Virus record (IMG/VR): IMGVR_UViG_2737471821_000001
Location: 1 to 37,988 of that record
Strand: one strand, 5' to 3'
Source of the DNA: a virus
Lineage: Duplodnaviria; Heunggongvirae; Uroviricota; Caudoviricetes
DNA: 37,988 bases
Shown here: positions 30,469 to 34,305 of the stretch, one piece after another
How positions within the stretch are numbered: the stretch's first letter is position 1
How the letters are laid out: each line of letters opens with the position of its first letter
Notes under the pieces: generated by a model
Seen by the model: only the letters and a program-made list of their open reading frames with translations
Told to the model about the DNA's origin: nothing
Databases searched by the model: none
Program-made: the position numbers and the translations under genes

Positions 30469-30491
30469 TTTAATTTATCGCGAGAAAAACT

Positions 30492-31225
30492 ATGTCTGTA
30501 GTGATATCAGGTGCACTGATTGATGGCGCAGGCATCCCCATGTACGGATGCCACATAACTCTGAAATCCCGGGTAAACACCTCAGAGGTGTGATGCGCAC
30601 AGTTGCCGATGTGGTGACAGGAAACTGTGGTGCAGGCGCAGCAGAGCGCGAAACAGCACAGGGACGAGGCGCAATGGATAGTTGATGATCTGAAGGGAAG
30701 CAATGCTTCCACGACAAAAAAGGTCTGGCGCAACTCTGTAGTGATACAGACAACGACAGCGAAGAACTGGCAGCCACGCCAAAGGCTGTCAAAACCGTCA
30801 CGGACGAGACGAAAACAAAAGCGCCACTGGACAGCCCTGCATTCACCGTCACGTCAGAACTTATCGCCGTGGGAAAGGATGCCAGAAAGCGGGAAATCGA
30901 GGTGTGGAGCACAGAACAGGAAGCGCAGCCGTTCACGTTCGAATGGAACGGTCGCACCTGGAATGCTGGCCCCGACTCAATGGCTCGTCTTTATCCGGCA
31001 GTAATGGCATCAAAGTCTGACACAGCGCGAAAAACCATGGTATGGGGCGATGCGGAAAACCAGCAGGTGAAGCTGTCAATGCCGGAACCGGAAGAACTGG
31101 CAGCAGCAATGGCGCAGGCTGTTGTTGAACGCAATGACGAGATTTATCGCCGTCAGCGAGAGAAGAAAGAAGCGTTAGACACTCTGGAGGATTTAGATGC
31201 GATACGAGCATTTAATGTTGAGTAA
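30492..31225 (+). pseudogene. degenerate lambdoid side-tail-fibre (Stf)-like gene remnant, frameshifted
   Basis: ORF opens with MSVVISGALIDGAGIPMYGCHITLKSRVNTSEV then a stop at 30591, resembling the lambda Stf N-terminus. Another frame carries ATPKAVKTVTDETKTKAPLDSPAFT, resembling an internal Stf motif. Reading shifts between three frames. Confidence 0.5.
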
Positions 31226-31396
31226 CGAATAGGTCGCAGTGAGTTGTTCTGGTATCTGAAGAATGAGGCTCCGGTTGCTGGCTGCAGTCGGAGGTTTATG
31301 ATGTGTACTCTCACATTGTTGAAGAAATCAATTGCGCAATTGGAGAGCAGGAACGTAAGAAAACAAGAGAAAGTCTACAATCGCTTGTAGGGTGTC

Positions 31397-31439
31397 ACTT
31401 CTTGATTTTTTCATAAATTTTATGATAAAATCAAGAAGT
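31397..31439. promoter_or_regulatory. 43-bp near-perfect palindrome (candidate operator/promoter) upstream of the two-gene cargo operon
   Basis: ACTTCTTGATTTTTTCATAAA-T-TTTATGATAAAATCAAGAAGT, one mismatched pair; contains TTGATT and TATGAT hexamers. Confidence 0.5.
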
Positions 31440-31461
31440 AAAAGTGATGGGAGAAACTTTC

Positions 31462-32133
31462 ATGAATATGCCTCATTGTGTTCTGCATACAGGAATTGAT
31501 TCGGATTTTGTACTTAGTAAACTGGGCTTTACAGAAAATGATATTCGCGATGCGTTAATGTCTGCTTTATACGAGCGACGCAAATCCAGTAAGCTCCACC
31601 CTAAAGTGGATGCTGGATTCCGCTTTTGGAGTGAGATGGTTGCCGCGCTTCGCCGTATTCTGATTGGTAAGGGTAACGGCTGGTCTTCTGAAGTAGTCAA
31701 TCGCATGGAAATGGTCGTTAATTCAAGCAAAGGGGTTAATCTGATTATTACCTCAGGTGACGGACATACCGGGCGTCCTGATGGATTGCCTAAAACCAAA
31801 AATGCAAAGGGAGAGGCAACTCGCTCGATTGTTCACAACAATCCGGGTACATTCGATATGTTCCAAGCAGATACCTTACATTCAGGCAAAGCTGAGATCA
31901 CGCCGATAGATAGCACCCGAACTTATATCGTTCTGTATTATTATGATGCGGCAAATAAAGAAATTCGCTGTGAGGTGTCGTATCCGGTAGGGATGGTGAA
32001 TCAGGACGGATTTGCCAGAGTAAGCGCGTGGAGTGAGCGAATTATTTTAGCTCCTCTGCAATTTGAAGGTGCGGATATTTTCCCTGAACAGGATTTTGAT
32101 GATGACATATCAATTTCAGTTGAAAGCAAATGA
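31462..32133 (+). CDS. hypothetical protein, upstream partner of the HTH-ImmA gene (candidate effector/toxin)
   Basis: ATG at 31462 with GGGAGA RBS (the track ORF begins at a GTG at 31444). 223 aa, no family recognised. Stop overlaps the next start (ATGA). Confidence 0.5.
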   Translation: MNMPHCVLHTGIDSDFVLSKLGFTENDIRDALMSALYERRKSSKLHPKVDAGFRFWSEMVAALRRILIGKGNGWSSEVVNRMEMVVNSSKGVNLIITSGDGHTGRPDGLPKTKNAKGEATRSIVHNNPGTFDMFQADTLHSGKAEITPIDSTRTYIVLYYYDAANKEIRCEVSYPVGMVNQDGFARVSAWSERIILAPLQFEGADIFPEQDFDDDISISVESK

Positions 32134-33236
32134 GTAACACTGTTGATGATGTCAAACGTCTTTTTAATCCGTCTCGACTAAAGCTAGCGCGGATCAGACG
32201 CAAACTGACCTTGGCAGAACTGGCGAGGCGAACCGGGTTATCTAGTCGTATCGTAATTGAATACGAAAAAGATTATTGTCTTTATGCACCCACGGCAGAG
32301 ACGGTACGCGCATACGCTAGTGCTTTAAATTATCCAGAGGCTTTTTTCTTTGGCGATGATGTTGAAACAATTGATCCATTGACTGTTTCATTTCGTTCAT
32401 TACGCACAACAAAAGCTGCTGACCAGCATGCGGCAATTGGTGCAGGTGCTTTAGGGGTTATGCTTAGCGATTATTTTAATGCTCGCTTTACTCTTCCTTC
32501 GCCTCAATTGCCGAATCTCCGTGGAAGTGAGCCTGAGGTCGCTGCCCAAGCGATACGCGAGGCTTGGGGGATTGGTAAGAAGAGTATCACCAATGTTGTT
32601 CATCTACTTGAGAAATTTGGAGTTAAGGTGTTCTGGCTTTCAGAGGAAACAGCGAGTATTGATGCTTTTTCGTTCTGGAAAGATGATGTCCCTTATATCT
32701 TTCTTAACACACGCAAGTCAGGTGAACGCAGCCGTTTTGATGCCGCACATGAATTGGCTCACCTAGTACTTCATCGTCAAGGGGAAGTCAAAGGGCAGGA
32801 TGCTGAGCGTGAAGCGGATGCTTTTGCTTCTGCATTTCTAATGCCTCAGGAAAACGTGATGGCCGTTAAGATGGTGGTCCCGACGTTTGATAAAATTGTG
32901 CAATTGAAATCACTCTGGAAAGTTTCGGCTATGGCCCTGATTGTCAGAATGCGCAATCTAAATATGCTGACGGAATGGCAGTATAATAGTTTGATACGTG
33001 ATGCGACGGCAAAGGGGTATCGAACCGGCGAGCCGGGGGGAATTGAGCGCGAAAGATCACTCGTTATAGAAAAAATGATGACTGCTCTGGCTGGAGACGG
33101 CATTTATCTGGCTCAGTTGAGTGATGAGCTTAACGTACCTCTCGATGAATTGAGTAGTTTGCTTTATGGAGTTGCGGCAATTAGTGGCGGAAATAGCAAA
33201 AGAACACCATCAAGGGCTTCGCTCCGACTAGTATGA
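32130..33236 (+). CDS. fusion of HTH-XRE DNA-binding domain and ImmA/IrrE-type zinc metallopeptidase (COG2856-like)
   Basis: N-terminal HTH (LKLARIRRKLTLAELARRTGLSSRIVIEYE) and central HEXXH motif (AAHELAHLVLH). Confidence 0.7.
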   Translation: MSNTVDDVKRLFNPSRLKLARIRRKLTLAELARRTGLSSRIVIEYEKDYCLYAPTAETVRAYASALNYPEAFFFGDDVETIDPLTVSFRSLRTTKAADQHAAIGAGALGVMLSDYFNARFTLPSPQLPNLRGSEPEVAAQAIREAWGIGKKSITNVVHLLEKFGVKVFWLSEETASIDAFSFWKDDVPYIFLNTRKSGERSRFDAAHELAHLVLHRQGEVKGQDAEREADAFASAFLMPQENVMAVKMVVPTFDKIVQLKSLWKVSAMALIVRMRNLNMLTEWQYNSLIRDATAKGYRTGEPGGIERERSLVIEKMMTALAGDGIYLAQLSDELNVPLDELSSLLYGVAAISGGNSKRTPSRASLRLV

Positions 33237-33411
33237 CCCGTAAATGCTCACATCTGGAGTCGTAGTGAACGTCTTTTGGGCCTGAAAAGTAAATCCCCAG
33301 TTGTTGCTGACAACTGGGGATTTTTATAACAGCATATAAATCGTAAAGGATATTGTCATATGCCTTATTCAAGAACGTGCTGAGGTTGAGAAGTTTTGGA
33401 ATTTTTTCGGT

Positions 33412-33457
33412 GGCAAAAATGGGGCAAAACGCTGCAAAAGGGGCAAAAATGGGGCAA
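33412..33457. repeat. two direct copies of GGCAAAAATGGGGCAA near the prophage/core junction
   Basis: Copies at 33412..33427 and 33442..33457, read directly from the sequence. Confidence 0.5.
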
Positions 33458-33755
33458 CAAAAGAGTGGATTATCGTAGCTTATTGTTGTTGCTGATAACA
33501 CTTAACGCATTGAAAAATAAATAAAACTCTTACACCTCAGATGGTTGTGATTTTTGCCCTTACTTGTTCAGGTTGTATTGTTCTTTCTTACTAATTTCTT
33601 GATTTTGCGACATTTAAAAGCGACTCAATTCGTTATATGGCATCAGAAGAGTATGCGTCATGCCGGAACGCCCAGCATAAGAAATCTGATATAAAAAACT
33701 GTGGCGTGTATGGTACGGATTAGAGGGGAAAATGTCAGCACATTTGCGAAATGAA

Positions 33756-33782
33756 TCAAAAAGCCCGCAGCAATGTGCGGGC
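33756..33782 (-). terminator. intrinsic terminator downstream of uspF
   Basis: GCCCGCAGCAATGTGCGGGC hairpin with a T-run on the minus strand. Confidence 0.6.
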
Positions 33783-33789
33783 GTTAGTG

Positions 33790-34305
<516 letters not shown>

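Follow-up and report, generated by a model that had tools for sequence, protein, structure and literature searches.

Genes and genomic context

The window, the whole stretch of 37,988 nucleotides that was analysed, is a prophage of E. coli. It carries baseplate, tail-fibre and tail-fibre-assembly genes, and its right end adjoins uspF, ompN and nifJ/ydbK. The prophage/chromosome junction is at approximately 33383-33386, from where the sequence is again homologous to E. coli K-12. Among 5,426 complete genomes of E. coli, only 8 carry the stretch 31230-33800. The interval from the last tail gene to the junction is filled by two overlapping genes on the plus strand. The first gene, rmrT (31462-32133; 223 aa from the ATG at 31462), matches the PADLOC model of the Rosmer toxin RmrT (PDLC03935, E=1.3e-59 over 13-229) and has no family match in Pfam, NCBIfam or PHROGs. 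The second gene, rmrA (32130-33236; 368 aa), overlaps the stop codon of rmrT by 4 nt and matches the model of the Rosmer antitoxin RmrA over its full length (PDLC03949, E=1e-142). RmrA combines an XRE-type helix-turn-helix (HTH) in residues 17-72 (32178-32345, plus strand; Pfam PF01381, HTH_3, E=3.8e-10), with the recognition helix predicted at about S38-E46, with an M78 (ImmA/IrrE-type) zinc-peptidase domain in residues 161-274 (32610-32951, plus strand; Pfam PF06114, E=4.6e-21), in which H207-E208-x-x-H211 is invariant throughout the RmrA alignment. With an M78 antitoxin that carries an N-terminal HTH and an adjoining RmrT-family toxin gene joined to it by a 4-nt overlap, the two genes, which an earlier note on this DNA had called a cargo operon, form a Rosmer (RmrT/RmrA) anti-phage toxin-antitoxin pair, situated at the prophage's right end. 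The same note had placed an HTH domain two genes downstream of a palindrome in front of the operon; the HTH is indeed encoded by the second gene downstream of the palindrome, rmrA, and not two genes beyond the first gene, and no other DNA-binding domain is predicted in the operon.

Anti-phage toxin-antitoxin pairs of the Rosmer family are widespread. In other Rosmer systems, neutralization of RmrT toxicity by RmrA and protection against phages have been demonstrated (10.1101/2022.05.11.491447; PMC10440598), a ΔrmrA mutant proved impossible to transform, perhaps on account of toxicity (10.1101/2022.05.11.491447), and cleavage of the HTH has been proposed as a regulatory mechanism in Rosmer-like systems (PMC10440598). 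Among solved structures, a single-sequence search with RmrA gave no match and a profile search of the PDB recovered domain-level relatives only, namely CapP and CapH-type structures (7t5t, 7t5u), an ImmR-type structure (7t8i, E=3.4e-5) and IrrE (3dte, E=0.03); for the best PDB match, 9vzy, no associated paper was found in the literature.

Downstream of rmrA, direct reading identifies a strong intrinsic terminator on the plus strand (33291-33325), consisting of a 13-bp stem (AAATCCCCAGTTG / CAACTGGGGATTT), a 7-nt loop and a T-run, which is absent from the list of the consensus scan. With a predicted promoter, a proposed operator and a terminator of its own, rmrTA is a self-contained transcription unit approximately 60 bp from the prophage end. 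Short GGCAAAA/GGGGCAAAA repeats run over approximately 33408-33460, just inside the prophage/chromosome junction. On the other side of the operon, the region 30470-31230, from the tail-fibre assembly gene to the operator, holds overlapping open reading frames on both strands and short tail-fibre remnants, annotated by PGAP as a 33-aa 'prophage tail fiber N-terminal domain' CDS and a DUF4376 protein, and has the appearance of a tail-fibre cassette, beside the cargo, that has decayed or recombined.

The palindrome and the promoter within it

The proposed rmrTA operator is a 43-bp dyad at 31397-31439 with its centre at 31418. Read directly, its sequence is ACTTCTTGATTTTTTCATAAA-T-TTTATGATAAAATCAAGAAGT, and a repeat finder delimits the same two arms (31397-31417 and 31419-31439) of 21 nt each, 95% complementary and 1 nt apart, the sole mismatch being T at 31410 against T at 31426. 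While 20 of 21 positions pair in the palindrome, the best palindromes in 30 shuffles of the whole 38-kb window that preserved local composition reached 14-16 of 21; the 43-bp palindrome is thus confirmed as real and far above chance. The arms of 21 bp with one mismatch and the centre about 45 bp upstream of the first gene, as noticed earlier from the letters, are both borne out, with position 31418 lying 44 nt 5' of the ATG at 31462. A scan of the whole window for inverted repeats with a seed of 9 and a short loop misses the palindrome, which is an artefact of the parameters, as the exact seeds are the outer 13 nt, 17 nt apart. A second copy of the half-site pair does not occur within the window, and on this ground the site was judged not to be copied from the immunity operators of the prophage itself.

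The dyad comprises two outer arms and an inner core. The left outer arm, ACTTCTTGATTT (31397-31408), holds the -35 hexamer; the right outer arm, AAATCAAGAAGT (31428-31439), which reads AAATCATGAAGT in relatives, holds the predicted transcription start; and the inner symmetric core, CATAAATTTTATG (31412-31424), is situated in the promoter spacer, with CAT-N7-ATG invariant in close relatives. As the only plus-strand promoter-like site 5' of the operon, a promoter scan independently lists, inside the palindrome, the -35 hexamer TTGATT (31402-31407), a spacer of 18 nt and the extended -10 TG-a-TAAAAT (31423-31431; hexamer TAAAAT at 31426-31431), in agreement with the overlap with promoter-like hexamers described before. 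In this region the scan gave 8 promoter-like matches, with 5.3 expected, and such matches in themselves are no rarity; the promoter assignment rests on conservation. By the positions of the hexamers, the dyad begins shortly 5' of the -35 and extends to about +1. Its lone mismatch falls on the first T of the -10 (31426), and the mirror-image hexamer on the minus strand reads AAAAAT, an asymmetry which favours transcription towards rmrT. Deduced from the end of the -10 hexamer at 31431, transcription would start near 31438, at the right edge of the dyad.

Several close relatives possess a poor -10 in the register of the window (TGAAAT, TTAAAT) together with an alternative central -10-like hexamer, which in some of them outscores the hexamer at the modal position. 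The single best sigma-70 match per locus is noisy, with hexamers at the modal positions in only about 40% of loci, and the promoter register was therefore taken from the family consensus described below.

A ribosome-binding site, GGGAGA (31449-31454, plus strand), ends 7 nt before the ATG at 31462, and the arrangement GGAGA-N7-ATG is kept in 7 aligned sequences with RmrA at least 87% identical, while the two most distant sequences (L010 and L011) diverge there. In the 100%-identical record NZ_CP128584, PGAP starts rmrT at the ATG at 31447. Given the conservation of GGAGA-N7-ATG, this start is probably five codons too long, and transcription predicted to start near 31438 would leave an ATG at 31447 without a ribosome-binding site. 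The likely start codon of rmrT is thus the ATG at 31462.

A palindrome of this length might alternatively function as a nucleic-acid hairpin, either as a DNA cruciform or, in transcripts that read through from the upstream tail-fibre genes, as an RNA element for termination, insulation or processing, and the sequence would fold stably both as RNA (-19.6 kcal/mol, z=-4.5) and as DNA (-14.9 kcal/mol, z=-6.9). However, with the predicted promoter inside the dyad, the operon's own transcript would start in the right arm and lack the left arm. Furthermore, the A+T-rich stem is accompanied by a T-run on neither strand and is not listed by the terminator scan, and Rfam yields only sub-threshold matches, to eukaryotic miRNA hairpins.

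Conservation in close relatives

Eleven loci with RmrA relatives were taken from genomes and viral contigs. Counting the window, the dyad occurs at the same position in all 12 of the 12 non-redundant loci with RmrA at least 69% identical, and in every fetched locus of this identity both half-sites are found at an offset of 33 nt, directly 5' of rmrT. Across these relatives the dyad keeps 34-42 of its 43 bases, with flanks that are unalignable and at random levels of identity. This can be seen at the far end of the range, where in four loci with RmrA 69-85% identical (L095, L013, L010 and L011) 34-35 of 43 bases of the dyad are identical as compared with 6-16 of 43 in the upstream flank (anchored, ungapped); in L010 and L011, RmrT itself is only about 52-55% identical. 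Invariant in 9 of 9 aligned sequences (RmrA 69-100%), with diverging flanks, are the left outer arm ACTTCTTGATTT, CAT.A...TTATG and AAATCA(T/A)GAAGT. Position 31434 is A in the window and in two viral contigs (L176 and L177, 695-737) and T in all other relatives (ATCATGAAGT); as this A re-pairs with the first T of the -35, the window carries the most perfect palindrome of the clade. As judged from the alignment, conservation applies to the outer and inner blocks as a set rather than to complete complementarity. Host-factor boxes were considered and rejected, as by eye the invariant bases misfit the consensuses of LexA, CRP and Fur.

A search of 2.9 million viral contigs with the invariant pattern gave 9 matching contigs, in 9 of 9 of which rmrT follows immediately. 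Together with the single copy in the window, this indicates a site that is specific to the rmrTA operon, with no regulon. The search for the palindrome upstream of homologous operons, which had been put forward as a check on the operator reading, thus found it in 12 of 12 close loci and a homologous dyad in 58% of 134 loci of the wider family. The refuting condition named in the note, absence from homologous loci, is not borne out, and the outcome favours the operator reading.

These data bear on two alternatives to a protein-binding site. For a hairpin, it is unexpected that the sequence itself, beyond its pairing, is invariant over 12+12 outer bases down to 69% identity, and that the dyad accompanies rmrTA through unrelated upstream contexts. 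The conservation could also reflect promoter hexamers only; the symmetry would then be incidental, or would be left over from movement of the cassette, for example from a site of recombination or the edge of an insertion. Some of the invariant bases do belong to the -35 and the extended -10, promoter-like matches are, as seen above, not rare nearby, and the DNA-level homology of L010 and L011 starts and stops exactly at the dyad. Nevertheless, the invariant ACTTC 5' of the -35, the GAAGT 3' of the -10 and the CAT/ATG of the spacer are not needed by sigma-70, no second copy lies beyond the other side of the cassette, and the 3' end of the cassette is an ordinary terminator. Considering also the joint change of the outer arms across the family described in the following, which promoter function does not need, this explanation is very improbable.

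Dyad design and joint change of the arms in the wider family

With the RmrA alignment, a further 160 loci were retrieved from metagenomes and viral contigs. In nearly all relatives, a gene of approximately 200-300 aa (mostly 215-240 aa) is located directly 5' of rmrA. With a dyad defined by at least 15 of 23 complementary pairs in a 145-nt region, 78 of 134 non-redundant loci (58%) carry a dyad upstream of rmrT, of 38-46 bp and over the promoter, with RmrA down to approximately 40% identity. The same threshold is reached by 2% of shuffled upstream regions (0.15% reach at least 16 pairs), by 1% of regions inside rmrA, 1% of regions inside rmrT and 14% of regions downstream of rmrA, where terminators are expected. 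The remaining 42% of the upstream regions, below the threshold, include start-codon misassignments as well as different arrangements, such as those of locus L005 and of a clade at 30% identity.

The family consensus of the dyad is TATTTCCTGTTTTTTAACCTCAA-ATGAGGTATAAAAAAAGGAAATA. It places a -35 of (C/T)TGTTT in the left arm, a CCTCA-N2-TGAGG core in a spacer of 17 nt and a -10 of TATAAA in the right arm, with the expected start site within the right outer arm; both hexamers are in the register of those of the window, and the core is the positional counterpart of the inner core at 31412-31424. Compared at this level of sequence, the family dyads are homologous in design. Counted from the centre, pairing amounts to 79-94% at positions 2-6, 75-97% at positions 10-14 and 94-100% at positions 18-21, and positions 7-9 and 15-17 are mostly unpaired across the family. 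The outer arms vary by subclade (ACTTCTTGAT, ATTTCTTGTT, TACTTCCGGTT, GTTCCGGTT, TGTTGATTTT, TCCTATAAAC and TCCTGAAATT) and are mirrored within each locus. Since centring on the whole dyad biases the comparison, only the inner 14 positions were used to set the centre; on this basis, pairing at positions 17-22 amounts to 74% within a locus and 40% between loci (permutation p=0.0002).

Such a joint change of the arms is characteristic of either a two-fold symmetric ligand with diversified specificity or a stem. Paired changes that keep complementarity are equally expected of a stem, but mismatches in the family dyads are not enriched for G·U (0.205 observed, 0.186 expected) and the unpaired stretches at positions 7-9 and 15-17 interrupt it. 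In view of these observations and those on promoter position and sequence invariance, a hairpin function of the palindrome is highly unlikely.

The inner core reads (A)CCTCA-N2-TGAGG(T) in most of the family, CCTAC..GTAGG in some members and TCATAA..TTATGA in the clade of the window (for example as compared with L089, L129 and L048). From these variants, the inner core has switched at least two times, with outer ACTTC arms retained in several clades. In the most distant RmrA clade (L155-L167; approximately 30% identity, HTH ..ISRQAISSFEKG..) no dyad is found; in its place, two direct copies of TGGTTGACA approximately 31 nt apart lie 5' of the toxin gene (for example in L155), which suggests a different operator architecture in this branch. 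L005, from an acidobacterium (Acidobacteriota; RmrA 45% identical), carries the perfect half-sites TACAAGAAAT and ATTTCTTGTA at 2244-2253 and 2328-2337, which point away from each other, 74 nt apart, without forming a compact dyad.

The candidate binding protein

Recognition helix and arm sequence may run in parallel to some extent. The recognition-helix string GLSSRIVIEYEK is common to all loci with ACTTCWTGAT arms, save for S39N or V42I in a few, and ..T(I/L)TR(L/I).. recognition helices accompany TGTTGATTTT arms. Across the family, distances between HTHs and distances between operators are correlated (Mantel r=0.33, p=5e-4), and among 254 alignment columns, residue 41 of RmrA, in the recognition helix, comes first for the outer and A/T blocks and second for the inner core. 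Mutual information between RmrA and the dyad gives striking z-scores, yet in a control with the full protein many columns outside the HTH equal them, and the HTH columns as a group show operator covariation no higher than the rest of RmrA (Mann-Whitney p about 0.3). As the HTH columns are not enriched, shared ancestry accounts for most of the correlation between HTH and operator, and the covariation at the level of residues is no more than suggestive. It is by parsimony and by analogy with related systems, and not by clean covariation, that RmrA would be the protein that binds the dyad.

Half-sites are approximately 34 bp apart for the outer arms and approximately 8 bp apart for the inner core, which together are more than a simple XRE dimer would bind, so that binding by RmrA needs a tetramer or another contact surface. 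Likely candidates are an RmrA tetramer, as in CapH (10.1101/2022.04.27.489752), or a contribution by RmrT.

An involvement of RmrT could take the form of an RmrT-RmrA complex on the dyad, or of RmrT on the outer arms with an HTH dimer on the core, in either case with a binder that is not RmrA alone. Classical type II toxin-antitoxin systems provide a precedent in the conditional cooperativity exerted by the toxin-antitoxin complex. The three symmetric blocks per half (positions 2-6, 10-14 and 18-22) extend beyond the contacts of one HTH dimer, many subclades with different outer arms keep the inner core CCTCA-N2-TGAGG, and the missing enrichment of the HTH columns as a group extends to the covariation with the outer arms. 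Yet RmrT has no recognizable DNA-binding domain, in line with its lack of a Pfam, NCBIfam or PHROG match, the top column for the outer arms is the recognition-helix residue 41 of RmrA, and a tetrameric HTH protein on its own can bind an extended site, as described for CapH (10.1101/2022.04.27.489752). A binder other than RmrA alone is considered unlikely, if somewhat less so than a hairpin or promoter hexamers alone.

A model for regulation of the operon

The dyad overlaps the operon's own core promoter and is conserved with, and confined to, rmrTA, as would be expected of an autoregulatory operator. With a probability of roughly three in four, the palindrome is the promoter-operator of rmrTA, bound by a symmetric RmrA oligomer through its XRE HTH, so that the operon would repress itself. 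The operator and autorepression reading of the earlier note is thereby supported by conservation, promoter register and cis-linkage to rmrTA, with binding by RmrA as the inferred part; that autorepression is tight, as the note had it, can equally be no more than inferred from the arrangement.

According to this promoter-operator model, a two-fold symmetric site would enclose a sigma-70 promoter, the left arm supplying the -35, the right arm the extended -10 and the right edge of the site the transcription start. An RmrA oligomer on the DNA from -35 to +1 would exclude RNA polymerase, and the toxin-first operon would be held at a low, self-limited level of expression. Upon activation of the fused M78 peptidase, or upon loss of RmrA, the HTH might leave the DNA, in analogy to ImmR/ImmA, DdrO/IrrE and CapH/CapP, whereupon the operon would be derepressed at the same time as the toxin is freed.

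A more elaborate version of this model is conceivable, though doubtful in its entirety. It would see in the dyad a tripartite site of approximately 45 bp, made up of outer arms, A/T tracts and inner core, with an RmrA tetramer that wraps the promoter, arms that have diversified against cross-regulation and a self-cleavage that both derepresses the operon and releases the toxin. If so, cleavage would occur upon phage sensing, one protein would be sensor, repressor and antitoxin, and the diversification of the arms would keep co-resident Rosmer systems from cross-regulating each other.

Significance

In the literature searched, no description of an RmrA operator or of the rmrTA site was found; cleavage of the HTH is proposed there for Rosmer, with no DNA target defined. 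While autoregulation of this sort is ordinary, the particular rmrTA site seems to be previously undescribed, and, unsurprising in principle, it is marked by unusually wide conservation and by its extended three-block dyad. The promoter-operator is precisely delimited and conserved from Enterobacteria to Methylococcales and beyond, with natural specificity variants available, for example in the ACTTC, ATTTC, GTTCC and TGTTGA arms. It can serve as a substrate for binding, reporter and cleavage assays, by which the proposed coupling of repressor, antitoxin and protease in one protein becomes directly testable, and should be useful to researchers of Rosmer and of the regulation of defence systems.

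Comparison with known systems

Among toxin-antitoxin systems, HigBA and MqsRA are toxin-first operons with an XRE-HTH antitoxin that repress themselves from palindromic operators overlapping their own -35 and -10, an organization that rmrTA would share. Their operators are two separate short palindromes with one antitoxin dimer on each, whereas the arms of the rmrTA site pair symmetrically across approximately 34 bp around a third symmetric core, and RmrA adds a protease domain. ImmR/ImmA of ICEBs1 and DdrO/IrrE of Deinococcus employ the two domains of RmrA, with a COG2856/M78 protease that inactivates an XRE repressor acting on palindromic operators. In these systems, however, repressor and protease are separate proteins that control element excision or a DNA-repair regulon and not one toxin-antitoxin operon, and their palindromes of approximately 17 bp are found at many loci, in contrast to the rmrTA site at its own operon only.

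RipAB (Spr1630/Spr1629) of S. pneumoniae likewise consists of a Rosmer-type toxin followed by an HTH-M78 antitoxin, the antitoxin function of which has been demonstrated (10.1101/2025.09.02.673660). Residues 12-344 of RmrA match the corresponding model NF052239, 'spr1629 family repressor/antitoxin' (E=1.3e-36), with 126 bits, far below the cut-off of 335, so that RmrA does not belong to this equivalog and is a distant relative. RipAB also differs in its toxin, and no operator is defined for it in 10.1101/2025.09.02.673660.

A further parallel in mode of action is offered by CapH/CapP. There, the HTH protein CapH acts as a repressor on a conserved site in the promoter of its operon, and the M78 peptidase CapP cleaves it; CapH-CapP fusions are also mentioned (10.1101/2022.04.27.489752). 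RmrA matches the capP model (E=1.3e-19) as well as the capH model (E=1e-5). As in CapH/CapP, which governs CBASS and other defence operons, an XRE HTH and an M78 peptidase would control a toxic anti-phage operon from a conserved promoter-proximal site. Unlike CapH and CapP, RmrA fuses HTH and peptidase in one polypeptide, which is also the antitoxin; rmrA is the second, co-directional gene inside the regulated operon, whereas CapH and CapP are encoded by separate genes that lie divergently upstream; and the rmrTA site is a dyad of 43 bp over -35 to +1, as compared with a CapH site of 22 bp upstream of the -35. Thus, rmrTA would resemble CapH/CapP in its working but departs from the gene layout that defines that system, of which it is not a member.
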